In this document: one piece after another, positions 27,303 through 57,509 of the stretch
Position numbering within the stretch: the stretch's first letter is position 1
Layout of the letters: each line of letters begins with the position of its first letter
Program-made: the position numbers and the translations under genes
Notes under the pieces: generated by a model
Seen by the model: the letters and a program-made list of their open reading frames with translations, nothing else
Database searches by the model: none
What the model was told of the DNA's origin: nothing
Assembly: GCA_035702405.1 (NCBI GenBank)
Contig: DASSQR010000096.1
Location: 2,037-66,036, forward strand
From: Gallionella sp.
GTDB lineage: Bacteria; Pseudomonadota; Gammaproteobacteria; Burkholderiales; Gallionellaceae
Direction: 5' to 3'
DNA length: 64,000 nt

Positions 27303-27493
27303 ACGGGCACCTCCATAAATTTGCTTTTGCGGGCGAATCGCGGCGTCACGTGTTGGCTCCGACTAACCTGAAGGTAAGTCTCGCCGCAACTTCGTTGTCG
27401 CTCGTTCCTCGTCTATCATTCGATATGCCTCGTCGTTCGCTGCGCGGCTCCTTGCGCTTCACTCCGCAAAAGCAAATTTCTGAAGGCGCCCGT
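27303..27493. mobile_element. MITE-like element with ~30-bp terminal inverted repeats and ERIC-like core
   Basis: ACGGGCACCTCCATAAATTTGCTTTTGCGG at 27303 versus CCGCAAAAGCAAATTTCTGAAGGCGCCCGT ending 27493. Core TCCTCGTCTATC..GATATGCCTCGTCG is shared with 57363-57509. Confidence 0.8.
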
Positions 27494-27496
27494 CGT

Positions 27497-28126
27497 TTAA
27501 CGCAGCAGTGGTTGCAGGGCCTTCAGCACATTGCGCATCAGTTGCGGTTGTGCGGCTTCATTCGGATGCAGGTTGTCGGCCTGGAATTGGTCGGGTTTGA
27601 CCCCCTCCAGCAGGAACGGCAGCAGGCTGAGACGATATTTTTTTGCGAGCCGCGGATACAGGTTATGGAATTGCGTGATGTACGGCTCGCCGTAGTTCGG
27701 CGGTAGCTTCATGCCGACCAGCACGATTTGCGCGTTCGCTTTCTGGATATTCTCGATGAGAGCGGTCATGTTGGCTTCGACACTGCTGATGCTGTAACCG
27801 CGCAGGCCGTCATTCGCACCCAGTTCCAGAATCACGATGGCAGGGCGGTATTGTTGCAGAGCGCTGGCAATACGCTCGCGCCCGCCCAGGGTGGTTTCAC
27901 CGCTGATGCTCGCATTCACAATGTGATATTTTGCGCCGGTACGCAGCAGTTGCTGCTGCAGCAGGTTTACCCAGCTTTTTTCTCGGTCGATGCCGTATCC
28001 GGCTGATAGACTGTCGCCGAATACCAGGATGTTTTTGGCCGCGTGCGCGGGCGCAGGCTGCCACACGGCGGTCGCCAGCAAGAAAATCAACATGAGCGGC
28101 AATTTTGCCAAGGATGAATTCTTCAT
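27497..28126 (-). CDS. tesA: Arylesterase/acyl-CoA thioesterase I (SGNH)
   Basis: Signal peptide, GDSLSAGYG, NASISGETT, ELGANDGLRG, DNLHP. Confidence 0.9.
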   Translation of the reverse strand: MKNSSLAKLPLMLIFLLATAVWQPAPAHAAKNILVFGDSLSAGYGIDREKSWVNLLQQQLLRTGAKYHIVNASISGETTLGGRERIASALQQYRPAIVILELGANDGLRGYSISSVEANMTALIENIQKANAQIVLVGMKLPPNYGEPYITQFHNLYPRLAKKYRLSLLPFLLEGVKPDQFQADNLHPNEAAQPQLMRNVLKALQPLLR

Positions 28127-28790
28127 GACAGTGATTGTGCAGGCGGTTGAATTGAGTAAGCAAGTGTTAAGCGGCGCGCAGCCGCTGTCAATTTTGCACG
28201 AGGTCAATTTTGCCGTTGATGCAGGCGCCAGCGTGGCGATTCTGGGCGCTTCCGGTTCCGGCAAGTCCACCTTGCTTGGCTTGCTCGCCGGGCTGGATGT
28301 GCCGACGAGCGGCAACGTGCTGCTCAACGGCAATGACCTGTTCGCGCTGGACGAGGACGGGCGCGCCCGATTGCGCGGCGAACTGGCCGGCTTCGTGTTC
28401 CAGTCATTCCAGTTGTTGCCGGCGCTGAATGCGCTGGAAAACGTGATGCTGCCGCTGGAGCTGCGCGGCGTGGTCGATGCGCGCGAACGCGCGATGGGAT
28501 CGCTGCGCCAAGTCGGCCTGCGTGAACGTGCGCATCATCTGCCCAAACATCTGTCCGGTGGCGAGCAGCAGCGCGTCGCGCTGGCACGCGCATTCGTCAC
28601 CCAGCCGAAAATCCTGTTCGCCGACGAACCCACCGGCAATCTCGACGCCGCTACCGGCGCGCAGGTGATTGAGCTGATGCTGGAACTCAATCGCGCGCTG
28701 GGCACGACGCTGATCCTGGTTACGCATGACGCCGCATTGGCCGGTCGCTGTGGCCGGCAGTTGCATCTTGCCGCGGGGCGGATGGCATGA
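28125..28790 (+). CDS. ABC transporter ATP-binding protein (YbbA-like)
   Basis: Walker A GASGSGKST, LSGGEQQRV, ADEPTGNLD; divergent from tesA as in E. coli. Confidence 0.92.
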   Translation: MTVIVQAVELSKQVLSGAQPLSILHEVNFAVDAGASVAILGASGSGKSTLLGLLAGLDVPTSGNVLLNGNDLFALDEDGRARLRGELAGFVFQSFQLLPALNALENVMLPLELRGVVDARERAMGSLRQVGLRERAHHLPKHLSGGEQQRVALARAFVTQPKILFADEPTGNLDAATGAQVIELMLELNRALGTTLILVTHDAALAGRCGRQLHLAAGRMA

Positions 28791-28813
28791 AGGTGCTTTA
28801 TCATGGCGTTGGA

Positions 28814-28877
28814 TTTTGTCCGCGCTTTGCGCGGATTCGTTCAATCAACTGGATTCCGGCCTGCGCCGGAATGACGG
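28814..28877. repeat. Single CGTC-tagged palindromic arm with internal segment
   Basis: Palindrome CTGGATTCCGGCCTGCGCCGGAATGACGG at 28849-28877; whole segment is a near-identical direct repeat of 29242-29305. Confidence 0.88.
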
Positions 28878-28895
28878 AACGCGGCGAGCAGTGAG

Positions 28896-29186
28896 ATGAA
28901 CAAGCAACCCTGCGTCTATCTGCTCGCAAGCAAACGTAATGGTACGTTGTATGTCGGTGTGACGTCGGATTTGATCAAACGAATCTGGGAACACAAGAAT
29001 CATGTCACCGAAGGGTTCACCAGTAAGTATGGTGTGGATCGGCTGGTCTGGTATGAGATGCATGAAACGATGGAGTCTGCTATTCAACGAGAAAAGGCGG
29101 TCAAGGAATGGCAGCGGGCATGAAAGGTGCACATCATTGAGCAAACCAATCCGAACTGGGATGACCTCTATGGAACCCTATTATGA
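28896..29186 (+). pseudogene. GIY-YIG nuclease family protein interrupted by an in-frame TGA
   Basis: VYLLAS..GTLYVGVTSDL..R..EH, SAIQREK; TGA at 29121-29123 where W is expected; the homologous tail KVHIIEQTNPNWDDLY continues in frame to 29186. Confidence 0.85.
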
Positions 29187-29187
29187 T

Positions 29188-29305
29188 CCGTCATTCCGGC
29201 GCAGGCCGGAATCCAGCGGTTTTATTGAAAATGCCGTTGAGTCTTGTCCGCGCTTTGCGCGGATTTGTTCAATCAACTGGATTCCGGCCTGCGCCGGAAT
29301 GACGG
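29188..29305. repeat. REPIN-like doublet of CGTC-tagged palindromes
   Basis: CCGTCATTCCGGCGCAGGCCGGAATCCAG at 29188-29216 and its exact inverted copy at 29277-29305. Confidence 0.9.
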
Positions 29306-29312
29306 TTGTTTC

Positions 29313-31784
29313 ATGAACCTGCTCCGCCTCTCCTTCAACCTTCTCCGCCGCGACTGGCGCGCGGGCGAATGGCGCGTGCTGCTGCTGGCGCTGTTGCTGG
29401 CGGTGGGCAGCCTGAGCACGGTCGAGCTGTTTGGCGACCGGGTGCGGCTCGCGTTGCAGCAGCAGGCACAAAGCCTGATCGGGGCGGATCTGCGCATTAC
29501 TTCGACGCGGCCGCTGCCGGATTCTTATGCGGCTGCGGCCAAAGCGCTCGGTCTGCGCACCGTCACCAGCCTGACCTTTCCGAGCATGGTGTTGTTCCGC
29601 GAGCAGACTTTGCTGAGTGAGATTCAGACCGCTGAACCGGGCTATCCGCTGCGCGGCAAGATTGTCATCAACGACGGCTATGAGCATGTGGCGACCGCGA
29701 TTCCGGCGCCCGGTACGATCTGGGCTGACGAGCGGCTGTCGCGGCGGCTGGGGGTGGCGCTGGGCGATACGGTCGAGATCGGCAAGCAGCGCTTCGTGGT
29801 GTCGGCCTATATCGTGAAGGACATCGATCAGGCCATCGGCTTTGCGAGTTTTGCGCCGAAGGTGATGATGAACGCGCAAGACTTGGTGGCGACCGGCTTG
29901 CAGCAGGAAGGCAGCCGCATCAGTTACCGCCTGATGATTGCCGGTGACGCGGCGCAAGTTGCGAGGTTGCGCGACCAGTTGAAAAACCGGCTGTCCGGCA
30001 GCGAGAAACTGGAAGACGTACGCGATGCGCGGCCCGAGATTCGCACTACGCTGGAGCGCGCCGAGCACTTCCTCGGGCTGGCTGCACTGACCGCCGCGAT
30101 TCTCGCCGGTGCGGCCATGGCGCTGGCCGCGCGCCGGTTCGTGCAGCGCCACCTGGATGGCTGCGCAGTGATGCGCTGCCTGGGCGCGCAACAGGGCCAG
30201 GTGCTGCGCCTGTTTCTGTACCAGTATCTGTTGCTGGGCGTTGTTGCGGTATTGCTCGGTTGCGGGCTGGGATATGTCACGCAGGCGGTGCTGGTGAATT
30301 TCCTAGCGGCGCTACGCAGTGCGGGGTTGCCGCAGCCAAGTGTATTACCGTTGTTGAAGGCGGCGGCGAGCGGTTTTGCGCTGCTGTTCGGGTTTGCCTT
30401 CCTGCCGCTGTTGCAGCTGCGCAAGGTGTCGCCGCTGCGCGTCTTACGCCGCGAGATGGGTAACCCTCCGGCCAGCGCCGCCCTGGCTTACGGTGTCGCC
30501 GTGTTAGTGTTGGCGGGGCTGTTCTTGTGGCAGGCGGATTCGACCAGACTGGGGCTGACGATGCTGGGCGGACTGCTCGCCGGGATGGTGGTATTTGCCG
30601 GCGTCGCGTGGCTGCTGCTGCATGGCCTCGCGCGTTATGCCATGCGTTCGGCCTCTTACTGGCGGCACGCGTTTGCCAATCTGGCACGGCACGGGCGCAC
30701 CAATGCGATGCAGATCGTTGCGCTCAGCCTGGGCGGCATGGCGCTGTTGATGCTGACGCTGGTGCGCGCCGACCTGTTGCGCGGCTGGTACGACAAGCTG
30801 CCGCCGGATACGCCGAACCGTTTCGTGGTGAATATCCAGCCGGACCAGAGGCGGGCCGTGGAGGAATTCTTTGTACGCCGCGCAATGCCACCGCCCCAAC
30901 TGTTGCCGATGGTGCGCGGCCGGCTGGTCGCGCTCAATGACCGACCCATCACCGGCGACAGCTATCCCGATCAGCGTGCGCGCGCATTAGTCGAGCGCGA
31001 ATTCAATTTGTCCTGGGCGGAGCAGATGCCGGCGTGGAACGAACTGGTGCAGGGCAAATGGTGGAGTGCGGGAGCGAAAGCGGAGCTGTCGGTCGAGGAG
31101 GGTATTGCAAGTACGCTGGGCATCCGCCTCGGCGATGTGCTCACCTACGATGTCGCGGGCAGCCGCTTCTCCGCGCGCGTGACCAGTCTGCGCAAGGTGC
31201 AGTGGGACTCGATGCGCGTGAATTTTTTCGTCATCGCCACGCCGGCATTGCTGCAGGATTATCCGGCCAGCTATCTCTGCAGCTTTTATCTGCCGCCGGG
31301 GCAGGTGCGTGTGGGCGACCAGTTGGCGCTGGAATTCCCCAATCTGCTGGTGATCGATACCGGGGCGGTCATCGCGCAGGTGCGCAACATCATGGACCAG
31401 GTCGCGCAGACGATGAGCGTAGTATTTCTGTTCACTTTGTTCTCCGGGTTTGCGGTGCTGTATGCCGCACTACTGGCGACACAGGACGAGCGCATCCACG
31501 AGGCGGCGATCCTGCGCACCCTCGGCGCGGTTAGCGGTTATCTGCGCCGTCTGCACCTGAGCGAATTTGCCGCGCTGGGTTTGCTGAGCGGTTTGTTCTC
31601 GGCGGCCGGCGCCGTGCTGCTGGGCTGGGTGCTTGCGCGCTTCGTGCTGGAAATCCCGTATCAGCCAAGCTTCGCCATCTGGCTGATCGGCGGTCTGGGC
31701 GGGATGGCGGTGGTGATGCTGGCCGGATGGCTGGGCACACGCCGCCTGATGCAGCTGCCGCCACTGGTGATCCTGCGCGAATAG
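29313..31784 (+). CDS. ABC transporter permease (YbbP/FtsX-like)
   Basis: RRDWRAGE, IGADLRI, GYPLRG, MRCLGA, PNRFVVNIQP, EAAILRTLGA. Start set at MNLLRL; the upstream ORF extension lies within the repeat. Confidence 0.9.
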   Translation: MNLLRLSFNLLRRDWRAGEWRVLLLALLLAVGSLSTVELFGDRVRLALQQQAQSLIGADLRITSTRPLPDSYAAAAKALGLRTVTSLTFPSMVLFREQTLLSEIQTAEPGYPLRGKIVINDGYEHVATAIPAPGTIWADERLSRRLGVALGDTVEIGKQRFVVSAYIVKDIDQAIGFASFAPKVMMNAQDLVATGLQQEGSRISYRLMIAGDAAQVARLRDQLKNRLSGSEKLEDVRDARPEIRTTLERAEHFLGLAALTAAILAGAAMALAARRFVQRHLDGCAVMRCLGAQQGQVLRLFLYQYLLLGVVAVLLGCGLGYVTQAVLVNFLAALRSAGLPQPSVLPLLKAAASGFALLFGFAFLPLLQLRKVSPLRVLRREMGNPPASAALAYGVAVLVLAGLFLWQADSTRLGLTMLGGLLAGMVVFAGVAWLLLHGLARYAMRSASYWRHAFANLARHGRTNAMQIVALSLGGMALLMLTLVRADLLRGWYDKLPPDTPNRFVVNIQPDQRRAVEEFFVRRAMPPPQLLPMVRGRLVALNDRPITGDSYPDQRARALVEREFNLSWAEQMPAWNELVQGKWWSAGAKAELSVEEGIASTLGIRLGDVLTYDVAGSRFSARVTSLRKVQWDSMRVNFFVIATPALLQDYPASYLCSFYLPPGQVRVGDQLALEFPNLLVIDTGAVIAQVRNIMDQVAQTMSVVFLFTLFSGFAVLYAALLATQDERIHEAAILRTLGAVSGYLRRLHLSEFAALGLLSGLFSAAGAVLLGWVLARFVLEIPYQPSFAIWLIGGLGGMAVVMLAGWLGTRRLMQLPPLVILRE

Positions 31785-31823
31785 TTGCAACGCCGCTTCA
31801 GGTTGAGGGAACCCCCAGGTTGG

Positions 31824-31839
31824 TGATAGAATGCCGGCC
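31824..31839 (+). promoter_or_regulatory. Putative extended -10 promoter with GC-rich discriminator for rpsB-tsf
   Basis: TG-A-TAGAAT followed by GCCGGCC, ~150 nt upstream of rpsB (leader length compatible with an S2 autoregulatory leader). Confidence 0.55.
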
Positions 31840-31985
31840 GCTTCTGGATAGGCTAGGAGCAAATTTCCCGCTCGCGCAAGTCAGGGTGCTTACCGGAAAG
31901 TGCCAGAGATCGTTTGATTTTTGGATGTTTCCGTTATGAGTCAAGCTGGCGAGCGGTAGTTTATAACCCTCACATTGGAGTAATT

Positions 31986-32708
31986 ATGGCTGTAACTATG
32001 CGTCAAATGCTCGAGGCTGGTGTGCACTTCGGTCACCAGACCCGTTTCTGGAATCCCAAGATGGCTCCGTACATCTTCGGTCACCGCAACAAGATTCATA
32101 TCATCAACCTGGAAAAGACCGTCGCGCTGTTCGCCGAAGCGGAGAACTTCGTGCGCAAGCTGACCGCGAAAAAAGGCACCATCCTGTTCGTCGGTACCAA
32201 GCGCCAGGCACGTGAAATCGTCCAGGAAGAAGCCGTGCGCGCCGGCTCGCCGTTCGTCAACTATCGCTGGCTGGGCGGTATGCTGACCAACCACAAGACC
32301 GTGCAACTGTCCATCAAGCGTCTGCGCGAGCTGGAACAGATGACAGCCGAAGGCGCATCCGAAAACGTTTCCAAGAAAGAAGCGTTGATGATGAAGCGCG
32401 AACTGGAAAAGCTGAATCGCAGCCTGGGTGGCATCAAGGATATGCAAGGTCTACCCGCGGCACTGTTCGTGATCGACGTCGGCTACCAGAAGGGTGCCAT
32501 CGTTGAAGCGCAGAAGCTGGGCATCCCGGTGATCGGCGTGGTTGATACCAACAATTCCCCGCTGGGCGTGGACTACGTCATTCCGGGTAACGACGACTCC
32601 AGCCAGGCGATCCGCCTGTATGCACGCGGTATCGCTGATGCGGTGCTGGAAGGTCGCGCACAAGCTCTGAACGAACTCGTCGAGCAAGTGGCTGAACAAG
32701 CAGCCTGA
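31986..32708 (+). CDS. rpsB: 30S ribosomal protein S2
   Basis: [41 protein letters not shown]. Confidence 0.98.
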
Positions 32709-32725
32709 GTTTCACCCGGGCGCGT

Positions 32726-32749
32726 AAAGGGGCGCAAGCCCCTTTTTTT
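32726..32749 (+). terminator. Intra-operon terminator-like hairpin between rpsB and tsf
   Basis: AAAGGGGC-GCAA-GCCCCTTTTTTT. Confidence 0.75.
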
Positions 32750-32772
32750 ATAAGTATTTTCAGGAGTTGATG

Positions 32773-33672
32773 ATGGCAGAAATTACTGCAAGCATGGTTA
32801 AGGAACTGCGCGAGGCGACCGGTCTCGGCATGATGGAATGCAAGAAAGCATTGGTTGAATCCAATGGTGATTTCAAGGTGGCGGAAGAGCAGTTGCGCAT
32901 CAAGAGCGGCGCGAAAGCCAGCAAGGCCTCCACTCGCGTGACGGCTGAAGGTGCGGTCAGTACCTTCATCGCCGCAGACGGCAAGACCGGTGCCATCGTG
33001 GAAGTGAACTGCGAAACCGACTTCGTGGCAAAGAACGAAGACTTCGTGGCCTTCGCCAAGAGCGTCGCCGAAACCGTGGCCAAGAATGATCCGGCTGATG
33101 TTGCTGCTTTGTCCGATGCGGCCATCGCTTCCGGTGCTGGCAGTGTGGAAGAAGTCCGCAAGGCGCTGGTGATGAAGCTCGGCGAAAACATTTCCGTGCG
33201 CCGTTTCGCGCGCTATGTGTCCGCTTCCGGCAAGCTGGCCAGCTACCTGCACGGCAGCAAGATCGGCGTACTGCTGGACTATACCGGCGGCGACGATGCC
33301 ATGGGCCGCGACATCTGTATGCACATCGCAGCGAGCAAGCCGAAGTCGGTTGATGCGTCCGGCGTGAACCCGGAAGACATCGCGACCGAACGCCGTATCG
33401 CGATCGAGAAGGCGCGTGAAAGCGGCAAGCCCGAAGCGATGCTGGACAAGATCGCCGAAGGGACCGTGCAGAAGTTCCTGAAGGAAGTGACGCTGCTGGG
33501 CCAGGTGTTCGTCAAGGCCGAAGACGGTAAGCAGACCATCGAGCAATTGCTGAAGAGCAAGGGTGCATCGGTCACTGCGTTCCAGATGTACATCGTGGGT
33601 GAAGGCATCGAGAAGAAGACCGAAGACTACGCCGCCGCGGTGGCTGCCACGATCGCTGCAGCACAGGGTTGA
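32773..33672 (+). CDS. tsf: Elongation factor Ts
   Basis: [37 protein letters not shown]. Confidence 0.98.
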
Positions 33673-33677
33673 TCGTC

Positions 33678-34397
33678 ATGAGCGCACCCGTCTACAAACG
33701 CATTCTGCTCAAGCTCAGCGGCGAAGCCCTCATGGGCGAGGACAGCTACGGCATTAATCGCACCGTGGTTGAGCGCATCGTTGCCGAGATTGCGGAAGTG
33801 ATTGGGATGGGAGTGCAGGTCGCAATCGTGATCGGCGGCGGCAATATCTTCCGCGGCGTGGCTCCGGCCGCGGCGGGGATGGATCGCGCAACCGCCGATT
33901 ACATGGGCATGCTCGCCACCGTGATGAACTCGATGGCGCTGCAGGATGCGATGAAACGCGCGGGGCTGGATTGCCGCGTGCAGTCCGCATTGAGCCTGGA
34001 GCAGGTGGCCGAACCGTTCATTCGCGGCAAGGCCCTGCGTTATCTGGAAGACGGCAAGGTGGTGATTTTTGCGGCCGGCATCGGCAGCCCGTTCTTCACC
34101 ACCGATACCGCCGCCGCGTTGCGCGGCGTGGAAATGTCCGCCGACGTGGTGATCAAGGCCACCAAAGTGGACGGAATTTATACCGCGGATCCGAAAAAGG
34201 ACCCGCATGCGATCCGCTACCAGAGCCTGAGCTTTGACGAAGCGATCAGCAAGAATCTTCAGGTGATGGACGCGACGGCGCTGACGTTGTGCCGCGACCA
34301 GAAGCTGCCGATTATCGTATTCAGCATCTTCAAGGCAGGCGCGTTGAAACGCGTGGTGCTGGGTGAAGGCGAAGGCACGTTGGTGCGTGTGAATTAA
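33678..34397 (+). CDS. pyrH: UMP kinase
   Basis: [39 protein letters not shown]. Confidence 0.98.
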
Positions 34398-34409
34398 CAG
34401 GGGGAGTTT

Positions 34410-34967
34410 ATGATTGCCGAAATTAGAAAAACGACCGAACACAAGATGCAAAAGTCCCTGGAGGCGCTGAAGGCGGACTTGGGCAAGGTGCGCACGGGAC
34501 GTGCGCATACCGGTTTGCTGGATCATGTGATGGTGGACTACTACGGCAATCCGACCCCGATCAACCAGGTGTCCAATATCACGCTGGTCGACGCGCGCAC
34601 CATCGGTGTACAACCGTATGAAAAGAACATGGTCGGCCCGGTGGAACGCGCGATTCGCGATTCCGATCTGGGTCTGAATCCGGCCTCCCAAGGCGAGCTG
34701 ATCCGGGTGCCGATGCCGATGCTGACCGAAGAACGCCGCCGCGATCTGATCAAGGTGGTCCGGTCCGAAGGCGAAAACGCCAAAGTGGCCGTGCGCAATA
34801 TTCGCCGCGATGCCAACAATCACCTCAAGGAAGCGCTCAAGAACAAGGAGATTGCCGAGGACGAAGAGCGCCGCACGCAGGACGACGTGCAAAAGCTGAC
34901 GGATCGCTTTGTCGCCGAAATCGACAAGATGCTGGCCGCCAAAGAAGCCGATCTGATGGCGGTCTGA
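34410..34967 (+). CDS. frr: Ribosome recycling factor
   Basis: RTGRA, YYGNPTP, LGLNP, LTEERR, VRNIRRD. Confidence 0.98.
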
Positions 34968-34977
34968 ACAGAGGAAA

Positions 34978-35053
34978 CAGGATTCAGAATGCAGGATTCG
35001 GCTAGAATGGCCGCCATTACTTGATCCTGAATCCCGCATCCTGAATCCTGAAT
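34978..35053. repeat. Heptamer-based (ATCCTGA) inverted repeat between frr and uppS
   Basis: CAGGATTCAGAATGCAGGATTC at 34978-34999 pairs with GAATCCCGCATCCTGAATCCTG at 35029-35050 (2 mismatches in 22). Confidence 0.8.
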
Positions 35054-36653: not shown

Positions 36654-36656
36654 ACG

Positions 36657-46867: not shown

Positions 46868-46888
46868 TTGCATCAACAGGAGTGGATT

Positions 46889-47364: not shown

Positions 47365-47434
47365 AACTCTCTCCCGGAGGGAGAGAGGGCAATAAATTCC
47401 CTCTCCCGCAAGCGGGAGAGGGTTAGGGAGAGGG
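47365..47434. repeat. Inverted doublet of CCCTCTCCC-type hairpin repeats
   Basis: CCCTCTCTCCAACTCTCTCCCGGAGGGAGAGAGGG ... CCCTCTCCCGCAAGCGGGAGAGGGTTAGGGAGAGGG between convergent genes. Confidence 0.8.
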
Positions 47435-47441
47435 CTGATAG

Positions 47442-48038: not shown

Positions 48039-48103
48039 GTTAGCGTTATATCTGGTTTGCCGGTAGCTTCGGGCCGTTGTTCAAAACGAATCTTTCCTGA
48101 ACG

Positions 48104-48538: not shown

Positions 48539-48719
48539 GATGGTGAGCTGTGTTTAAAGTAAGCGCAATCGCAGTGCGTGGAATTCTTCCTCGGCTCCAG
48601 ATGAGCGTATTGCTATGAGTATTCAAAGCTCGGCTTGTAGCCTTTCATCTCTGTCGCCTTGTCATGCTGCTCCTAGCTTTTGGACTGAAGCATACAGTTT
48701 CCATAGACCTTATCTTGTT

Positions 48720-49298: not shown

Positions 49299-49373
49299 TT
49301 ATGTGATATTGCGTTGAATAATTCGGTGTCGGCCTACTCGCCCGTTTGTGGCTGCGGCCGCTAGCATTTGCGA

Positions 49374-49399
49374 GCTTAACTTCGCTGCGCGAAGTTAGC
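49374..49399. repeat. Hairpin/palindrome downstream of smpB
   Basis: GCTTAACTTCGC-TGC-GCGAAGTTAGC. Confidence 0.6.
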
Positions 49400-49423
49400 C
49401 TGCGCCGCAAGCGCGCTGCCTGA

Positions 49424-49873
49424 CTATCGGCGTTCCTTTTTCATGGCCTGTGCCGCCTCACGCTTGGCGTCCTTTTCCTTCTCCGTTGCGCGCTTGTCGT
49501 GCTGCTTTTTGCCCTTGGCCAGGCCGACATCCAGTTTGACGCGGCCGTTTTTGTAGTGCATGTCGAGCGGCATCAGGGTGTAGCCGGCGCGTTGCGCCTT
49601 GCCGATGATCTTGTCGATTTCTTCCTTGTGCAGCAGCAGCTTGCGGGTGCGCACCGGGTCGGGGTGGATGTGGGTGGAAGCGTTCTGCAGCGGGCTGATG
49701 TGGGAACCGAACAGGTAGAGTGCGCCGTCTTTCACCGTGACGTAGGCTTCCTTGAGCTGCACGCGGCCGGCGCGGATGGCCTTGACTTCCCAGCCTTCGA
49801 GCATGAGGCCGGCTTCGTATTTATCCTCGATGAAGTAGTCGTGATAGGCTTTTTTATTCTGGATGATGCTCAT
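49424..49873 (-). CDS. smpB: SsrA-binding protein
   Basis: [37 protein letters not shown]. Confidence 0.97.
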
Positions 49874-49876
49874 TGT

Positions 49877-50147
49877 GAACCTCTGATTAAGCCCGGCATG
49901 ACCGCGCACTCGCCTTTGCGGGATGGGATGCAAGGAAGGCGACAACGCGAATGGTCATTCCCTTCGCTAGGAGCCTGACGCCGCAGACCGCCCGCAAAGG
50001 CAGTGCCCATGCGGGTTGCGCAAAATTTGTGCGTCTGCGTTGCCGCTCGCCTTGCGAATATGCTGTGGCTATTCGACGCGGCTTGCTTCCGGCATCCATC
50101 ACAAATTTGGCAGCAACGCGGTTCATGGCGGGTTTAATTAGAGGTTC
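49877..50147. mobile_element. MITE-like element with ~31-bp terminal inverted repeats and two inverted ERIC-like cores
   Basis: GAACCTCTGATTAAGCCCGGCATGACCGCG at 49877 versus CGCGGTTCATGGCGGGTTTAATTAGAGGTTC ending 50147; internal GCAAGG..hairpin..TGACGCCGCAG and inverted GCAACGCAG/GAATA-TATTC core. Confidence 0.75.
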
Positions 50148-50323
50148 CTAGTGAGTTTTGCGGTGTGTTCGGCTATTCTACCAGCCTTTGGAATTGCAGC
50201 AGGGCTGAAGGCGGTACTTTTGGAGCTGGTTCCGGACGGCAAACACCGCACCGGGCAATGGCAGGAAGGCGGTGTAGATCCTGCGGTTCAGGCAACAACA
50301 TATCGCAGACAGGGCAGATTGGA

Positions 50324-50764
50324 ATGGCGTTAGTAGAAAAATCAGTGTTGGTCGCGCATAGCGCAGACCAGATGTTCAACCTGGTGGACCGCGTGGAGGA
50401 ATACCCGCAGTTCCTGCCCTGGTGCGGCGGTGCGAATGTCAAGCTGCTGGAGGATGGCTCGACGGTGCACGCTACGGTGCATATCAATTATCACCACATC
50501 AAGCAGCATTTCACCACCGAAAACGTGCGCATGGCGCCGCACCAGATCGACATGACGTTGCAGGAGGGGCCGTTCAAACAACTTGACGGTCACTGGCGAT
50601 TTATCCCGTTGGGCGATTCAGCCTGTAAAATAGAGTTCCGCCTGCACTACGAGTTTTCCAGCAAGCTGCTGGAAAAGCTGGTTGGGCCGGTGTTTCATTT
50701 CATCACCAATAGTTTTGTGGATGCTTTCATCCACCGTGCAGATAAAATTTATACGAATTCATGA
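50324..50764 (+). CDS. ratA: Ribosome association toxin RatA/PasT (SRPBCC/Coq10-like)
   Basis: LVAHSADQMFNLVD.VEEYPQFLPWC, GPFKQLDG.W.F; conserved smpB-ratA-rnfH context. Confidence 0.9.
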   Translation: MALVEKSVLVAHSADQMFNLVDRVEEYPQFLPWCGGANVKLLEDGSTVHATVHINYHHIKQHFTTENVRMAPHQIDMTLQEGPFKQLDGHWRFIPLGDSACKIEFRLHYEFSSKLLEKLVGPVFHFITNSFVDAFIHRADKIYTNS

Positions 50765-51072
50765 GCGAAAAAATCAATATCGAAGTGATCTATGCGCTGC
50801 CCCACGAGCAAAAACTGCTGAAGCAGCAACTGCCGGCGGGGACGACTCTGCTCCAGGCGGTTCAGGCCAGCGGTGTGCTGGAACGGTATCCCGAGCTCGA
50901 CCCGGCTACGGCCAAGTTCGGTATCTTCGGCAAGCTGGCCAAGGCCGATACCGTGTTGCGCGACAAGGATCGCATTGAAATCTACCGTCCACTGATCGCC
51001 GATCCCAAGGAAGTGCGCCGCAAGCGCGCCGAAGAAGGCAAAGTGATGAAGAAGGGCGGCGGCGAGGTTTGA
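50761..51072 (+). CDS. rnfH: RnfH/RatB ubiquitin-like protein
   Basis: IEVIYALP, GIFGK, DRIEIYRPLIADPKE.RR. Confidence 0.9.
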   Translation: MSEKINIEVIYALPHEQKLLKQQLPAGTTLLQAVQASGVLERYPELDPATAKFGIFGKLAKADTVLRDKDRIEIYRPLIADPKEVRRKRAEEGKVMKKGGGEV

Positions 51073-51151
51073 AGACCTTCCGTCAATCTGCTCTGCAGGT
51101 GGCTTGCGGCGTCACGAGATCGAATTTCCGGTTCGGGATGGTGGGACGCTG

Positions 51152-52060
51152 ATGCTGAATTACGACCTGCATTGCCATTCCAGTACTTCCGATGGCACGC
51201 TGACTCCAACCGAGGTGGTGCGGCGCGCGGCTGCGCGCGGGGTGAAGGTATTGGCCCTGACCGACCATGATGATGTGGACGGGCTGGCCGAGGGGCGCGC
51301 CGCGGCCGAACAGCACGGCATGATCTTCGTTGACGCGGTGGAGATTTCCGTATCGTGGCGCAGCCATACGCTGCACATCGTCGGCCTGGGGATCGATCCG
51401 ACGTATCCTCCCTTGGTTGCCGGTCTGCAATCCTTGCGCGCCGGGCGTGGCGAACGCGCGCAGCGCATGGCCGATTCTTTGGCCAAAGCCGGCATTGGTG
51501 GGGTGCTGCAAGGCGCGTACCGCTATGCGGAAAACCCCAATATGATCGGCCGCACGCACTTTGCGCGCTACCTCGTCGAGGCCGGGCACAGCAAGGACGT
51601 GAAGGGTGTCTTCAGCCGTTATCTGGTTAAGGGCAAGCCGGGCTATGTGTCGCATCAATGGGCGGCGCTCGCGGATGCGGTCGGCTGGATTCGCGGCAGC
51701 GGCGGCATCGCGGTGCTGGCGCATCCCGGCCGCTACATGACCGGGCGCCACCACATGGGCAAGCACACCATGCACGAATTGCTGGTCGAGTTCGTCGCAT
51801 GCGGCGGGCAGGCGCTCGAAGTGGTCACGGGTAGTCACACGCCGGAACAGTATGCCGAGTTTGCGCGCTACGCCGATGAGTTCGATTTGCTCGCATCGTG
51901 CGGCTCGGATTTTCATGGTCCTGCAGAGAGTTACCGGGACCTCGGGCGCATGCCCGATCTGCCGCTCAGCTGCCGGCCGGTGTGGGAGGAGCGGCAAGAC
52001 GGATTTGTGCTCAAGACACATCACTCGCCCTCGCCCAGACCGGTTTCTTCACACGCGTGA
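51152..52060 (+). CDS. PHP-domain protein (YciV/TrpH-like)
   Basis: DLHCHSSTSDG, ALTDHD, HIVGLG, VLAHP, GSDFHG. Confidence 0.9.
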   Translation: MLNYDLHCHSSTSDGTLTPTEVVRRAAARGVKVLALTDHDDVDGLAEGRAAAEQHGMIFVDAVEISVSWRSHTLHIVGLGIDPTYPPLVAGLQSLRAGRGERAQRMADSLAKAGIGGVLQGAYRYAENPNMIGRTHFARYLVEAGHSKDVKGVFSRYLVKGKPGYVSHQWAALADAVGWIRGSGGIAVLAHPGRYMTGRHHMGKHTMHELLVEFVACGGQALEVVTGSHTPEQYAEFARYADEFDLLASCGSDFHGPAESYRDLGRMPDLPLSCRPVWEERQDGFVLKTHHSPSPRPVSSHA

Positions 52061-52102
52061 GAAGACGCGTCAGTGCGCTTGAAGGTAAAATATTTATAGT
52101 CT

Positions 52103-52726
52103 ATGGCACAGTTCTTTACGATTCATCCCGATAATCCCAACGCCCGCCTGATTCGCCAGGCAGCGGCGATGCTGCGCGACGGCGGCATTGTGGTGTACCC
52201 TACCGATACCTGCTACGCGCTGGGCTGCCATCTGGACGACAAGGATGCGGTGATGCGCATCCGGCAGATTCGCAAGCTGGACGAGCAGCACCACTTCACG
52301 CTGATGTGCCGGGACTTGTCGGAGATTTCGCGTTACGCGCGCGTGGACAATACCAAGTTCCGTCTGCTGAAAGCGAACACGCCGGGCAATTACACCTTCA
52401 TTCTGGAGGCGACCAAGGAGGTGCCGCGCCGGTTGCAGCATCCGAAGCGCAGCACCATCGGCATCCGGGTTCCGGATCATCCGGTGGCGCTCGCGCTGCT
52501 CGAAGAAATGGGCGAACCGATTCTGAGTTCCACGCTGATTTTGCCGGATGCCGAATGGCCTCTGACGGATCCGGAGCGTATCCGCGAGTTGCTGGAGAAA
52601 CAGGTCGAACTGGTCATCGACGGCGGCGCGGTCGGGCTGGACTTCAGCACGGTGATCGATCTGACCGGCGAGGCGCCCGTGTTGCTGCGGCAGGGCAAGG
52701 GTGATGCTGCTCCATTTGGGATTTAA
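52103..52726 (+). CDS. SUA5/YciO family protein
   Basis: IHPDNP, VYPTDTCYALGC, TIGIRVPDH, STVIDL. Confidence 0.92.
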   Translation: MAQFFTIHPDNPNARLIRQAAAMLRDGGIVVYPTDTCYALGCHLDDKDAVMRIRQIRKLDEQHHFTLMCRDLSEISRYARVDNTKFRLLKANTPGNYTFILEATKEVPRRLQHPKRSTIGIRVPDHPVALALLEEMGEPILSSTLILPDAEWPLTDPERIRELLEKQVELVIDGGAVGLDFSTVIDLTGEAPVLLRQGKGDAAPFGI

Positions 52727-52733
52727 TTAATAA

Positions 52734-53381
52734 ATGCATATCGATCAGTTCATTCAGACCGTGACACTCGGGGCGATCCCGATCCTGTTTGCCATCACGC
52801 TGCACGAGGCGGCGCACGGCTACGTGGCGCGCCATTTCGGCGATATGACGGCTTACCAACAGGGGCGCATCAGCTTGAACCCGTTGCGCCATATCGATCC
52901 GGTCGGCACGGTCTTGCTGCCGCTTCTGACGTTGCTGCTGGGTGGGTTGCTGTTCGGCTGGGCCAAGCCGGTGCCGGTCAATTTCAGTGCGTTGCGCCAC
53001 CCCAAAAAGGACATGCTCTGGGTGGCGTTGGCCGGGCCCGCTTCAAATCTGGTGATGGCCTTGGGCTGGGCGCTGCTTTATAAAGTGACCTGGTGGTTTC
53101 CGGAAAACTATTATGCTGAGCCGATGCTGGGAATGGCGAGCATGGGGATACAGATCAATATCGTGCTGATGGTGTTGAACCTGCTGCCGCTGCCGCCGCT
53201 GGACGGTGGCCGGGTTGCGGTCAGTTTGCTGCCGCCGCGGCAGGCCTACAAGTTGTCAAGGATCGAGCCTTATGGAATGTTCATCCTGATCTTCCTGGCG
53301 GTTACGCCGCTGTTGGGTTTGATTCTGTCTCCGCTGGTTGCGCTGGTGGAAAGATTGATTACGTTGTTATTTGGAATTTGA
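52734..53381 (+). CDS. Site-2 protease family (M50) protein
   Basis: LHEAAHG, GWAKPVPV, AGPASN, NLLPLPPLDGG. Confidence 0.92.
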   Translation: MHIDQFIQTVTLGAIPILFAITLHEAAHGYVARHFGDMTAYQQGRISLNPLRHIDPVGTVLLPLLTLLLGGLLFGWAKPVPVNFSALRHPKKDMLWVALAGPASNLVMALGWALLYKVTWWFPENYYAEPMLGMASMGIQINIVLMVLNLLPLPPLDGGRVAVSLLPPRQAYKLSRIEPYGMFILIFLAVTPLLGLILSPLVALVERLITLLFGI

Positions 53382-53388
53382 GGAATCC

Positions 53389-54591
53389 ATGTTTGCTGAT
53401 CGAGTGTTGTCGGGAATGCGTCCCACCGGAAATTTGCATCTGGGGCATTACCATGGCGTGTTGAAAAACTGGGTGCGGATGCAGCACGAGTACGAATGCC
53501 TGTTCTTCGTGGCCGACTGGCACGCGCTGACCACGCACTACGATACTCCCGAAGTCATCGAACAAAGCGTCTGGGACATGGTGATCGACTGGCTTGCCGC
53601 CGGGGTTGATCCGGCTCACGCGACCCTGTTTATTCAATCGAAGGTGCCGGAGCACGCCGAGCTGCATCTGCTGCTGTCGATGATCACGCCCTTGGGCTGG
53701 CTGGAGCGGGTGCCCACCTACAAGGATCAGCAGGAGAAACTGACCGAGAAGGACTTGAGCACTTACGGATTTCTCGGCTATCCGCTGCTGCAGAGCGCGG
53801 ACATCCTGATCTATCGTGCTACCCAAGTGCCTGTCGGCGAGGATCAGGTACCGCACATCGAATTCACCCGCGAGATTGCGCGCCGCTTCAATCACCTGTA
53901 CGGCCGCGAGCCCGGCTTCGAGGAAAAGGCCCTGGCCGCAGTGAAGAAGCTCGGCAGCAAGAAGGCCCGGCTGTATGCAGAACTGCGTACACGATTTCAG
54001 GAACAGGGCGATGACGAAGCGCTGGAATCCGCCAAGGCGCTGCTTGATGAACAGCAGAACCTGAGCCTGGGTGACCGCGAGCGTCTGTTCGGCTACCTCG
54101 AAGGCACCGGCAAGATGATTTTGTCAGAGCCGCAATCGATGCTGACCGCGGCCTCGCGGATGCCGGGGCTGGATGGTCAGAAGATGTCGAAGTCGTATCA
54201 CAACGTGATAACGCTGCGCGAAGACGAAACCAGCCTGGGCAAGAAGGTCCGCACCATGCCAACCGATCCGGCACGCATTCGTCGCAGTGACCCCGGCACG
54301 CCCGAGAAATGCCCGGTCTGGCCCCTGCATCTGGTGTATTCCAGCGACGACACCCGGCAATGGGTGCAGCGCGGCTGCACCACGGCGGGCATCGGCTGTA
54401 TCGAATGCAAGCAGCCAGTCATCGATGCCATGCTGACCGAACTGCGCCCGATGCGGGAACGTGCGCAACTGTACCTGGACGACCCGGCGCTGGTGCGCAA
54501 CATCATCGCGGACGGCTGTGAAAAGGCACGCAAGCTGGCGAGCGAAACGATGCGCGACGTGCGCGAGGCGATGGGGCTGAGTTACTCGTAA
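53389..54591 (+). CDS. trpS: Tryptophan--tRNA ligase
   Basis: SGMRPTGNLHLGH (HIGH-like), YPLLQSADIL, VPVGEDQ, KMSKS. Confidence 0.97.
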   Translation: MFADRVLSGMRPTGNLHLGHYHGVLKNWVRMQHEYECLFFVADWHALTTHYDTPEVIEQSVWDMVIDWLAAGVDPAHATLFIQSKVPEHAELHLLLSMITPLGWLERVPTYKDQQEKLTEKDLSTYGFLGYPLLQSADILIYRATQVPVGEDQVPHIEFTREIARRFNHLYGREPGFEEKALAAVKKLGSKKARLYAELRTRFQEQGDDEALESAKALLDEQQNLSLGDRERLFGYLEGTGKMILSEPQSMLTAASRMPGLDGQKMSKSYHNVITLREDETSLGKKVRTMPTDPARIRRSDPGTPEKCPVWPLHLVYSSDDTRQWVQRGCTTAGIGCIECKQPVIDAMLTELRPMRERAQLYLDDPALVRNIIADGCEKARKLASETMRDVREAMGLSYS

Positions 54592-54597
54592 ACGGCA

Positions 54598-54743
54598 TAG
54601 TGGGTGTTGAAAAGCGTCGCGAGCGATGACAGAACAAGGCGCGAAAGGGCGAAAAAGCGGAGTTTACACGAGAGTAAATGAGCATTTTGAGCCCTTGAGC
54701 AACGCCGTTATGTCGAGCGCAGTAGTTTTTCAGCATCCCATTA
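54598..54743. mobile_element. MITE-like element with TGTTGAAAA-type termini and ERIC-like core
   Basis: TAGTGGGTGTTGAAAAGCGTCGCGAG...CAAGGCGC...GAGTTTAC-ACGAGA-GTAAATGAGC...GCAACGCCG...CGCAGTAGTTTTTCAGCATCCCATTA; collinear with the reverse complement of 57363-57509. Confidence 0.75.
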
Positions 54744-54762
54744 GGCATATAAGGAGAAGTGG

Positions 54763-55017
54763 GTGCTTCACTATCTGGTTACAACATTCCGTACTCCCGA
54801 ATTTCAGCCATCTGTCATCGATGAGCACTATGCATTCCTTGATCATTTGAGACAACAGGGGAAGCTCGAACTGGCGGGGCCGTTTACGGATAAGTCCGGT
54901 GGGGCTTACTTGCTTAAGGCTGCGAATCTGGAAGAGGCGAAAGCATTGGCTTTCAGCGACCCGGTGCATATAACGAAATCTTCGATCGTTACGGTTTACG
55001 AATGGAATGCAAAGTGA
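54763..55017 (+). CDS. YciI family protein
   Basis: GTG start after AAGGAG; HYAFLD.L...GKLELAGPF..KSGG, DP. More AT-rich than neighbours. Confidence 0.8.
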   Translation: MLHYLVTTFRTPEFQPSVIDEHYAFLDHLRQQGKLELAGPFTDKSGGAYLLKAANLEEAKALAFSDPVHITKSSIVTVYEWNAK

Positions 55018-55060
55018 CCAGATTGCATGACTCTGTGTTCAAGCGTGTCCTCTTGGCTCC

Positions 55061-55870
55061 ATGATGAACGACACCCAAGTTCAACCTGTTGCCTATGCGC
55101 GCATTCACGGCGAGCCGCTGCTTGAACTGCCGCAGGACTTGTATATTCCGCCGGATGCGCTCGAACTCGTTCTGGAGAATTTCCAGGGGCCACTGGATTT
55201 ATTGCTGTACCTGATTCGCCGGCACAATCTCGACGTGCTCGACATTCCGATGGCGGAACTGACCCGCCAGTACATGGGCTATATCGAGATGATGCAGCAG
55301 CATCGGCTGGAGCTGGCGGCGGAATATCTGCTGATGGCGGCGGTGCTGATCGAGATCAAATCGCGCATGCTGCTGCCGCGTCTGCCAAAAGTCAGCGAAG
55401 AAGAGGGCGCCGACCCGCGTGCCGAGTTGATGCGCCGTCTGCTCGAATACGAACAGATGAAGCTGGCCGCGCAGAAACTCAACGAACTGCCGCAGGCCGG
55501 ACGCGATTTCGAGATCGTGCAGGTGCTGATCGAACGCACCGTGCAGGAACGCCTGCCACAGGTCGGCGTGGAAGACTTGCGCCAGGCCTGGCTGAGCCTC
55601 CTGGCGCGCGCGCGGCTGAACAAGCACCACAAGGTGCGGCGCGAACAGCTGTCGGTGCGCGAGCAGATGACGCATGTGCTGCGCTGCCTGCAGGGTGGTG
55701 AATACGTTCCTTTCGAACAGCTGTTTGACCTGGACGATGGGGTGCCGAAGCTGGTGGTCACTTTCATTGCCATTCTCGAACTGGCCAAGGAATACCTGGT
55801 GGAAATCCAGCAAAGCGAAACATTGGGGAATATCTATGTCCGGACTAGCCGAGCCATTACCGCTGAGTGA
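55061..55870 (+). CDS. scpA: Segregation and condensation protein A
   Basis: [49 protein letters not shown]. Confidence 0.95.
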
Positions 55871-56555
55871 GGTTGATTCAGCCGCTGCCGATTCTCTTGC
55901 GCCCGTTTGCGCAGAGCCGTCCAACGACAGCCTTGAGGTGCTTGCGCAACCAGCGATGACGGGTGGCGGGGAACTGGCGGTCACGGATTTGTTCGCAAGA
56001 GAACTGAATACCGCGGAATTCAAGCGCGTGCTGGAAACCGCGCTGCTGACCACCGCCGAACCGTTGCCGCTGAACGAGCTGAAGCGACTCAGCGACGTGC
56101 CGTTGGATAATCGCCAGTTGGAAACCTTGCTGGAAGAGCTGGCGCGGGAGTGGCAGGGCCGTGGCGTCGAGCTGGCGCGCGTGGCAAGCGGCTGGCGTTT
56201 CCGCGCCCGGCCGGAAATGCAGACGTATCTCGATCGGCTCAATCCCCAAAAGCCGCCGCGCTACTCGCGCGCGGTGCTCGAAACGCTGGCGATCATCGCC
56301 TACCGCCAGCCTGTCACGCGCGGGGACATCGAAGAGATTCGTGGCGTGGCGGTATCTTCACAAATCCTCAAGACGCTGGAAGCGCGCGGGTGGGTGGAAG
56401 TGGTCGGCACGCGCGAAGCACCCGGAAAACCGGAACTTTTTGCGACCACCAAACAAATGCTCGATGACTTGAATCTGCGTGCGTTGAATGAGTTGCCGCC
56501 ACTGGAAGAAATCGGCGCGTTGTTGGACCAGGAATCTGGCGACGGTACGGCTTAA
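55836..56555 (+). CDS. scpB: Segregation and condensation protein B
   Basis: [47 protein letters not shown]. Confidence 0.95.
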
Positions 56556-56588
56556 GACGCACAATTGGGCGCCCCTATACACCATTAG

Positions 56589-57365
56589 ATGAAGTTCATT
56601 CAGTCACGCGACAATCCGTTTTACAAGGAACTCGTCAAGCTCAGCGGTTCGGCGCGCCAACGCAGCAAGGCCAACCAGACTTTGCTGGACGGCGCGCATT
56701 TGCTTGCGGCCTATCTTGACAGTGGTCACACCCCCCGCCACATTCTGCTGAACGCCGCTGCGTTGAGGAGTGATGAAGTTGCCGCGTTGCTTAAAAGGGC
56801 AGGCGGCATTCCGGTCACGCAACTGGATGAAAAGTTGTTTGCGGAACTGACCGAGCTGAAGACACCCACCGGAATTCTCACCCTGATCGATCTGCCGCAG
56901 GTTCAGCCGGTGATGGCACAAACCCGTTTCGCGCTGTTGCTGGAAGACATCCAGGATCCGGGTAATCTCGGTTCGATATTGCGCTCGGCCGCGGCCGCGG
57001 GATGCGATGCCGTATTCCTGTCGGCCGGCTGTGCCGACGCCTGGTCGCCGAAAGTGCTGCGAGCGGCGATGGGCGGGCATTTTGTGCTGCAGGTATACGA
57101 GCGGCAAGACTTGTTGCAGGTTGCGCAGGCTTTTCCCGGCAACCTGTTGGCGACCAGCCTGCAAGCGACGCACAGCCTGTACGAATGCGACCTGCGCGGC
57201 AAGCTGGCATTCCTGATTGGCAACGAAGGGGCGGGGCTGTCCGCCGAATTGCTGTCCCGGGCGACACGAAAAATTACCATCCCGATGCCCGGCAAAATCG
57301 AATCGCTGAATGCCGCGGCCGCGACCGCGATTTGTTTGTTCGAGGCGGTGCGGCAACGCCGCTAG
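56589..57365 (+). CDS. TrmH/SpoU family RNA methyltransferase
   Basis: LEDIQDPGNLGSILRSA, GNEGAG, IPMPG.IESLNAAAA. Confidence 0.93.
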   Translation: MKFIQSRDNPFYKELVKLSGSARQRSKANQTLLDGAHLLAAYLDSGHTPRHILLNAAALRSDEVAALLKRAGGIPVTQLDEKLFAELTELKTPTGILTLIDLPQVQPVMAQTRFALLLEDIQDPGNLGSILRSAAAAGCDAVFLSAGCADAWSPKVLRAAMGGHFVLQVYERQDLLQVAQAFPGNLLATSLQATHSLYECDLRGKLAFLIGNEGAGLSAELLSRATRKITIPMPGKIESLNAAAATAICLFEAVRQRR

Positions 57366-57509
57366 CAGGCCGTTGAAAAACTACTGCGGCAGCCATCTGC
57401 TGCGTTGCGTGGTACTCGCTTCCTCGTCTATCTACCAGATATGTCTCGTCGCTCCGTTCCGTGCGCCTTGCAGCTGGCTGTCCTCGCTACGTTTTTCAAC
57501 AGCCTGCCA
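57363..57509. mobile_element. MITE-like element with CAGGCYGTTGAAAAAC terminal inverted repeats and ERIC-like core
   Basis: TAGCAGGCCGTTGAAAAAC ... GTTTTTCAACAGCCTGCCA; the left end coincides with the TAG stop of the TrmH gene. Confidence 0.82.

Follow-up and report, generated by a model that had tools for sequence, protein, structure and literature searches.

The 64,000-nucleotide stretch of Gallionella sp. DNA analysed here (C96:2037-66036, on contig DASSQR010000096.1 of a 3.0-Mb, 58% GC draft genome in 128 contigs, assembly GCA_035702405.1; hereafter the window) contains four palindromic elements, E1 to E4, and raises the question of what they are and how similar interiors could come to stand between dissimilar ends. 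The original prediction, made from the sequence of the window, described them as a MITE family (miniature inverted-repeat transposable elements) in which one core, resembling that of the enterobacterial ERIC repeats, was carried by three types of terminal repeat. Our analysis indicates that they are likely to be non-autonomous miniature transposons of IS5 type, moved in trans and belonging to a mosaic superfamily. The nested mosaic MITE superfamily seen in the first reading is real and somewhat unusual, and it shows no detectable kinship with ERIC. The four elements are:

27303..27493, unstranded: E1, a class-B MITE in its long form, 191 bp (covariance model 81 bits, E=5.8e-20)
49877..50147, unstranded: E2, a 271-bp composite with inverted repeats of ~30 nt (GAACCTCTGATTAAGCCCGG...) and two internal hairpins
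54598..54743, minus strand: E3, with class-A termini and arms and a different centre (a TTTAC-loop-GTAAA hairpin)
57363..57509, plus strand: E4, a class-A MITE, CTAG followed by CAGGCCGTTGAAAAAC...GTTTTTCAACAGCCTG (covariance model 135 bits)

All four are long imperfect palindromes, each of which folds as a single long hairpin on both strands, with minimum free energy z-scores of -3.1 to -8.9 relative to dinucleotide shuffles. E1 and E4 also share a non-palindromic centre, CCTCGYCTATC-loop-GATATGYCTCG, at the following positions:

27407..27432, plus strand: conserved centre of E1, CCTCGTCTATC-ATTC-GATATGCCTCG
57422..57448, plus strand: conserved centre of E4, CCTCGTCTATC-TACCA-GATATGTCTCG

The core that had been noticed in these two elements is borne out by local alignment of their interiors (z=10.6, a value reached by none of 500 shuffles). 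The subterminal sequence recognized in E3 and E4 turned out to be part of a longer match: when E4 was compared column by column with the reverse complement of E3, identity was 65-76% for the termini, 55% for the arms and, at the chance level, 31% for the 52-nt centre; GCGTTGC and GCGCCTTG stand in register between the two. With 84 diverse copies as its basis, a covariance model (R1) matched E3 over its full length on the minus strand (31 bits, E=2.6e-6), and matched E2 only at 49883-50028, the first 146 nt (18 bits, E≈0.01). Pairwise alignments of E2 with the other elements were not significant, nhmmer returned nothing for it at E<=10, and the interiors of E2 and E3 did not align with those of the other elements. 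E1, E3 and E4 belong to one superfamily of ~145-bp palindromic elements, and E2 is a larger composite that is weakly and loosely tied to it. The case for E2 sharing the layout that was proposed for all four elements is weak.

The elements are MITE-like and, as had been supposed, multi-copy, with 63 superfamily copies found in the source genome by the covariance model. The class of E4 has about 33-35 copies (57 BLAST matches in the genome, 24 of them near full length at ~145 bp and 84-96% identical), and that of E1 about 17-20, most of which do not carry a 45-nt insert found in E1. The E3 type has 3 full-length copies in the genome and partial BLAST matches at 4 other loci (7 further BLAST matches to E3 at 6 loci). 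E2 is single-copy in the source genome; genomes of the same genus or family have as many as 13 copies of it, in which the middle part varies. The central motif, CCTCGYCTAYC-N3-8-GRTATGYCTCG, was found 50 times in the source genome and at no fewer than 117 loci, in many genera, in a collection of species representatives. By record title these loci include Gallionella, Sideroxydans and Ferrigenium, Nitrosomonas, Rhodocyclaceae and Accumulibacter, Burkholderiales, and several Gammaproteobacteria (Porticoccaceae, Halothiobacillus, Guyparkeria and Thiotrichales); a few more come from metagenome-assembled genomes with the labels Geobacter, Nitrospirae or Bdellovibrio, where faulty binning is a possible cause. 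In a survey of sampled Pseudomonadota genomes the covariance model matched 26 of 251 genomes and 18 of 147 genera (E<=1e-6). Within the source genome, where an exact motif was not a condition for a match to the model (itself trained on motif-bearing copies), about 50 of the 63 copies carry the motif. We found no prior description of the superfamily in the searchable literature. Two tRNAs were the only features in the window to reach an Rfam gathering score, and a search of Rfam at E<=10 returned nothing for E4 except a chance match to an internal ribosome entry site.

What the copies have in common is a scaffold of ~145 bp (141-147 bp in most elements, 191 bp in E1 and 271 bp in E2), the outermost bases of which fall into many classes. 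The named terminus classes are:

Class A (E3, E4): YTAR followed by CAGGGTGTTGAAAAAC
Class B (E1): GGGCACCTCTATAAAT
Class C: GAAAACCTC..., GGACACCTC..., GTCATCGTTA...
Accumulibacter class: TNA followed by GAGGTTGTGAATAAATC
Nitrosomonas class: TA followed by GGGAAACGCTGATTAAT

The three terminus types first recognized in the window are present, and at least six types occur genome-wide. Splitting an alignment of the 84 diverse copies (A1) into termini, arms and centre, with clusters cut at 30% distance, gave 34 clusters of termini, 8 of arms and 2 of centres, which occurred in 45 combinations and were weakly correlated between zones (Mantel r = 0.15-0.27). Centres less than 12% apart were found with termini more than 55% apart in 231 pairs, versus 16 pairs showing the reverse. 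Individual copies illustrate both patterns (copies are named here by contig): E4 and the C62 copy are 35% identical in their termini, 62% in their arms and 86% in their centres, E4 and the reverse complement of E3 are 65%, 55% and 31% identical in the same zones, and the C86 copy combines arms like those of the C95 copy (79%) with a centre like that of class B (78%). The same centre is found with unrelated termini, and the same termini with unrelated centres, which upholds the modularity first suggested for the window and shows that the family is a mosaic. Recombination or template switching between copies would be the likely source of the mosaicism.

Smaller units are nested within some copies. 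One of them is the insert of E1:

27353..27397, unstranded: 45-nt insert, E1 positions 51-95, skipped by most class-B copies in BLAST alignments

The C108, C76 and C53 copies have this insert too, at the same position; it recurs at that position in Sideroxydans, and stands alone at C127:17520-17559. In Gallionella copies the inserts are longer and have the same ends, GTGTTGG...CCGCAAC. A mini-palindrome of ~56 nt (TGACCAGCGACTTGGCTGGCG...GCCAGCTTAGTCGAATGGCCA) is nested at one and the same position (GCTCCG^...TCCGTGCGCC) in at least seven superfamily copies (C12:70140-70211, C94, two on C43, C87, C52 and C71), and also stands alone at C87:15022 and C40:6816; it may be a still smaller mobile unit.

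The ends of the MITEs have counterparts among full-length insertion sequences (ISs) of the same genus. At loci L194 and L205 (both in G089) and L199 (G087) a full IS has the inverted repeat GGGCACCTCTAAAAAT... next to a TTAA flank, and the full IS at L185 has the inverted repeat GGGAAACGCTGATT, reading GGAAACGCTGATT... next to a CTAG flank. Both kinds of inverted repeat agree at 15 of 16 bases with one of the MITE terminus classes, that of L194/L199 with the terminus of E1 (GGGCACCTC-A-AAAT) and that of L185 with the GGGAAACGCTGA class, and the ISs have duplications of TTAA or CTAG. The flanks of the ISs are TTAA, CTAG or CTAA. A looser likeness was seen between L196, an IS903-like element (GGCGTTGTTGAATAAATC), and the ends of class A and the Accumulibacter class. 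The partner transposases matched NF033581 (IS5_4) at 289-368 bits (289-348 bits for L194, L199 and L185) and, for the looser IS903-like partner, NF033579 (IS5_2) at 278 bits. Since every partner transposase found belongs to the IS5 family, the terminus classes represent different members of one IS family; the idea that ends had been swapped between IS families was right in that the ends match those of real ISs, and wrong in that the partners found all come from a single family. The covariance model had no match in 21 IS loci, and the absence of the MITE interior from these loci indicates that the interior is not derived from these ISs.

Duplicated targets and empty sites provide further evidence of transposition. 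In class B the flanks agree at three or more of four bases in 7 of 17 copies, whereas permutation gives 1.9 and none of 2000 permutations was as high. A 3-nt repeat of the form TNA flanks 14 of 19 copies of the Accumulibacter class (p=0.003, permutation), and 13 of 14 copies of the Nitrosomonas class have TA on both sides. In the C95 and C60 copies (class B/C) a perfect duplication, TGAT...TGAT (ATCA...ATCA), lies at a presumed TGATG stop/start overlap. The E1 site is empty in at least nine genomes of the same genus, in most of which the stop and start codons lie a few bases apart; about 20 same-genus genomes likewise lack an insertion at the E2 site, E3 is absent together with a neighbouring YCII-domain open reading frame (ORF) from four, and, conversely, more than 10 elements in relatives match empty sites in the source genome. 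In genomes G102 and G114 (L173, L174) a different palindrome, 183 bp long with ends ATTCCAATCCAATTTC..., occupies the same site upstream of smpB (window 49874-49876) and is an independent second insertion there.

IS5-family transposases acting in trans would move such elements, duplicating YTAR, TNA or other 4-bp targets. A transposase domain of the appropriate type, PF01609 (DDE_Tnp_1, IS4/IS5-type), is present in 27 of the 41 genus genomes that were searched, and it had no match in the source assembly. Nor was a parental IS found inside the source genome, where the genes between paired class-A ends 1.3-3 kb apart are ordinary ones. The 63 genome copies look stranded because the assembly has no DDE_Tnp_1 match, and they are probably immobile at present.

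Each of the four elements adjoins a start or stop codon, as the first reading of the window had noted, and this can be attributed to the targets, since YTAR, TNA and TGAT-type sequences contain or overlap stop codons. The features that bear on this point are:

25268..27301, minus strand: DUF255/thioredoxin-domain (YyaL-like) gene, downstream of E1 (Pfam PF03190, 2.7e-73)
27303..27332, unstranded: left terminal inverted repeat of E1, an arm detected by repeat search
27464..27493, unstranded: right terminal inverted repeat of E1, an arm detected by repeat search
27497..28333, minus strand: GDSL lipase (TesA-like) gene, upstream of E1 (Pfam PF13472)
49424..49873, minus strand: smpB (Pfam PF01668), the leader of which is now formed by E2

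E1 is flanked by the stop codon of the GDSL lipase and the start codon of the DUF255/YyaL-like gene, both on the minus strand, beginning 3 nt past the lipase TAA and ending 1 nt ahead of the DUF255-gene ATG. Its two 30-nt arms are 90% complementary by repeat search, and the left repeat includes CACCTCC (27308-27314), or GGAGGTG when read along the minus strand, where it precedes the ATG at 27301-27299 by 6 nt. When the minus strand is folded, this Shine-Dalgarno-like sequence pairs within the terminal stem, and its partner terminus begins 3 nt past the upstream stop codon. The junction reads GGAGGTGCCCGTAATG at E1 and AGAGGTTCACAATG at E2 before smpB. E2 lies 3 nt from the smpB ATG (49873-49871, minus strand), between it and a strongly conserved promoter-like block, and the AGAGG in its terminus is 7 nt before that ATG. 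E3 starts 6 nt past the trpS TAA and is followed by the YCII-domain ORF, and the first 3 nt of E4 are the TAG stop codon of a SpoU-methylase gene.

Termini of the GGGCACCTC type place an outward-facing GAGG a few bases ahead of the downstream ATG, and GAGG-N5-9-ATG junctions were found in many class-B and class-C copies, including many external ones. A right terminus of the form GAGG(T/C)NYYC followed by TGATG puts GAGG ~7 nt before the ATG; examples of GAGGTGCCC followed by TGATG are the copies on C60, C125, C25, C108 and C95. In a GC-rich, tightly packed genome, the targets tolerant of insertion may mostly be stop codons and TGATG stop/start overlaps. After insertion at TGATG, the left copy of the target would keep the upstream stop and the right copy would keep the downstream ATG, and termini of the ...CCTC/GAGG... 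type would set a Shine-Dalgarno-like GAGG 5-9 nt before that ATG, facing outward. The GAGG termini probably keep an interrupted operon translatable in this way, and ribosomes that terminate on the gene upstream could release a GAGG that is paired in the stem.

The surroundings of three of the elements have features of their own. Immediately to the right of E2, a block of about 40 nt at window 50148-50190 (GTGAGTTTTGCGGTGTGTTCGGCTATTCTACCAGCCT) is ~95% conserved across the genus, far above the flanking coding DNA; on the minus strand it contains TAGAAT, a likely -10 box for smpB, and the block may also be the start of a RatA-like gene. The small YCII-domain ORF at window 54763-55017 makes up, together with E3, an insertion of ~500 bp between trpS and the next gene. 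Between E4 and a gene for pyruvate phosphate dikinase there is a sigma-70-like promoter at window 57547-57575 (CGGACA-17-TAGAAT), the TAGAAT of which is kept in a relative without E4.

The scaffold can be divided into three nested zones: ~16 terminal bases that would copy the inverted repeat of a particular IS5-family IS, arms that pair with one another and covary, and a strand-asymmetric centre of ~60 nt around a small TATC/GATA hairpin. RNAalifold predicted pairing in the termini and arms, with the inner core unpaired except for the small hairpin (TATC/GATA and two flanking pairs), so that the outer two thirds of the element are a covarying stem. Among predicted pairs, 89% of alignment cells are paired, where shuffles give 67% (none of 500 was as high) and slid-partner controls 30-52%, and 661 cells are changed on both sides, versus 222 in shuffles. 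Helix 3 (columns 36-52/131-147), which is 20-40 nt inside the ends and lies beyond any IS5 inverted repeat, is 93% paired with double changes in 10 of its 12 pairs. Pyrimidines abound in the centre on either side of the loop, which makes it strand-asymmetric and not palindromic. We make one tentative proposal, possible rather than probable: the ~60-nt centre (GCGTTGCGCGGTRCTCGCT-CCTCGCCTATC-loop-GATATGTCTCG...GCGCCTTGC) may be a functional module, selected across Pseudomonadota, that moves between MITE chassis with the ends of many different IS5-family transposons, accompanied by GAGG-terminus classes adapted to TGATG overlaps that would restore translational coupling. The module might act as an RNA element or be bound by a host factor or a transposition factor.

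Other explanations of the mosaic and of the mobility of the elements were considered. Gradual divergence within one MITE family, without exchange of modules, would make the termini the fastest-changing part because they track transposases and the centre the slowest, and it is consistent with the steady climb in conservation from the ends to the centre, with the class-C copies that bridge classes A and B as intermediates, and with the weak but positive correlation between zones. We think it unlikely nonetheless, as E3 has the termini and arms of E4 and yet a centre of the same length that cannot be aligned, the C86 copy has arms from one subfamily and a centre from another, and some pairs with centres less than 12% apart have termini that each agree with a different IS at 15 of 16 bases, for which point mutation alone would need ~10 coordinated changes on both arms. 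The palindromic form of the elements, the freedom of the stem to vary in sequence while its pairing holds, and the lack of a clear target duplication at E1 and E2 could also be read as signs of elements that do not derive from DDE transposons at all, either repeats of REP/REPIN type that a RAYT (Y1) transposase moves or attC-like recombination sites recognized by structure. This is barely credible given target duplications with statistical support, termini equal to IS5 inverted repeats, a length of ~145 bp instead of ~35 bp, and copies that are single and scattered over contigs without arrays or doublets.

The remaining alternatives concern what the interior is. Were the elements diverged members of ERIC (IRU/MITEEc1), with the same RNA-structural core and effect on mRNA stability through RNase E, they would extend that family beyond enterobacteria and vibrios, and the architecture is alike: a palindrome of ~130-150 bp, flanks that contain TA, and words like GCAAGG and CAACGC around a central hairpin. 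In pairwise local alignment with the ERIC consensus, E2 scored z=3.5-4.6 and a single copy of the Accumulibacter class z=3.9; values of z≈4 are weak evidence between GC-rich palindromes, because dinucleotide shuffles do not preserve palindromy. The alignments of E1, E3 and E4 were not significant. A profile hidden Markov model (HMM) of ERIC, from 15 copies on one E. coli chromosome, found nothing at E<1 in the source genome, and none of its 35 weak matches in 788 kb of related loci fell inside an element; in the other direction, neither the superfamily HMM nor the covariance model matched in ERIC loci. The 44-nt inverted repeat at the centre of ERIC, GTGAATCCCCAGGAGCTTAC...GTAAGTGACTGGGGTGAGCG, is absent from the elements. 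Membership in ERIC is therefore highly improbable, the description of the core as ERIC-like has to be given up, and the suggestion of an element outside the known host range of ERIC loses its meaning with it. It is also rather doubtful that the conserved part is foremost a functional RNA or DNA module of the host, with transposition secondary; candidate roles would be a bidirectional terminator, a stabilizer of 3' ends, a target of RNase III/E, or a binding site for a nucleoid protein. The covariation of the stem well past the IS5 inverted repeat in helix 3 speaks for such a role, as do the combination of A-tract, GC-rich stem and T-tract, which resembles a bidirectional intrinsic terminator, and the pyrimidines on both sides of the loop, which point to a strand-specific constraint; Correia and ERIC elements, moreover, undergo RNase processing (review PMC10969869). 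Against it are the lack of a robust bias in orientation relative to transcription, the lack of an Rfam match, a simple promoter/terminator scan that made no calls on the elements (its loop limit excludes long hairpins), and close relatives without copies at orthologous sites, which indicates that no individual copy is essential.

The reading that we prefer, of IS5-type MITEs in a mosaic superfamily, has to be set against several observations that weigh on the other side. Target duplications are weak in places: in class A (n=33 copies, from the source genome and related loci) YTAR on both flanks is marginal (p≈0.05), and the flanks of E1 and E4 are degenerate. No partner IS for class A, which supplies the termini of E3 and E4, or for E2 was found in any fetched locus. 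Copies of the transposase could have been lost at the contig breaks of a draft in 128 contigs. The external sample was chosen on the central 22 nt, so that conservation of this motif is partly built in; without these columns the mean pairwise distance falls from 0.57 for termini to 0.47 for outer arms and 0.39 for inner arms, a gradient from end to centre that is real but modest. Analyses of orientation relative to transcription disagree, with 41 reverse to 13 forward by crude ORF calls versus ~33 to 37 by the stricter method of adjacent start and stop codons. The role of the termini as ribosome-binding sites, finally, is suggested by sequence geometry.

Two other repeats were observed in the window. 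Palindromic repeats of the form CGTCATTCC(C/G)GCG.AGGC(G/C)GGAATCCAG, at window 25142-25265 and 28836-29305, bracket a small gene between ABC-transporter genes and bear a close resemblance to the dRS3/RS-type repeats of Neisseria. A 12-nt tandem repeat (CCGGGTACGACA-like, ~15-20 units) lies within a coding region at window 3456-3719 and would encode a P-G-T-T repeat.

Bacterial MITEs are usually viewed as genus-specific filler between two inverted repeats, and in a large survey 97% of them clustered within single genera (PMC11602168). The pattern here is reversed, in that the interior is common to many genera of Pseudomonadota and it is the ends that differ, matching different IS5-family elements. 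If the centre is functional, this would explain why one scaffold has repeatedly been re-equipped with new ends, and the superfamily would be a tractable system for learning what a MITE needs beyond inverted repeats. The GAGG termini suggest a simple route by which a transposon may lie inside an operon without silencing the downstream gene. There is a practical consequence as well: the elements give rise to spurious ORFs and displace the start codons that are called, both in genomes of Gallionellaceae and in many that were assembled from metagenomes, and they should be masked or annotated.

Among the closest known systems is Chunjie, a MITE from Geobacter uraniireducens (Chen et al., 2008, as presented in the review PMC10969869). 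The Betaproteobacterial repeat element (BRE) of Bordetella is described as ~90 bp long, 69% GC and often in tandem arrays (variable-number tandem repeats; Hot et al., 2011, PMC3110155); going by that description the present elements differ in being singly dispersed, ~145 bp and 55-61% GC, and identity with BRE is unlikely. ERIC/IRU (MITEEc1) of Enterobacteriaceae is alike in being an intergenic imperfect palindrome (~127 bp in ERIC) near gene ends with TA-containing flanks, and its copies are transcribed with the neighbouring genes; it differs in having no homology detectable by HMM or covariance model and another central repeat. As cited in PMC11602168, ISfinder places ERIC under IS630, whereas the elements described here are of IS5 type.

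The ends of known IS5-family elements offer a parallel, as in ISPsy19 (GAGGGTGTAGACAAAAT) and MITEPsy1 (GGAAGGTCTGAAAAAGCC), which use a CTAG/YTAA target (PMC3189936). MITEPsy1, with ISPsy2 and ISPsy19 in Pseudomonas syringae, is likewise a short non-coding element with IS5-family ends made of a G-rich block and an A-rich block, a CTAG/YTAA target, a 3-4-bp duplication and mobilization in trans (PMC3189936). It is 100 bp long with one terminus type and is essentially confined to one species complex, whereas the present elements are ~145 bp long, with a conserved centre common to at least 34 terminus clusters in many genera.

Correia/NEMIS elements and the NIMEs of Neisseria, and the BIMEs of E. 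coli, are also palindromic intergenic repeats able to carry regulatory signals. Correia/NEMIS elements have a 26-nt inverted repeat (TATAGTGGATTAACAAAAACCGGTACGG), a TA duplication and a site for integration host factor (IHF). Homology to that family was considered and rejected for E1, E3 and E4, as a Correia consensus, in what is a weak test, gave no significant alignment with any of the three; with E2 it gave a higher score, z=4.1. NIMEs and BIMEs resemble the present superfamily in a further respect, being mosaics of reusable modules, and differ in how the modules are put together: their units stand side by side, whereas those of the elements described here are nested, with termini outermost, then arms, then the centre.

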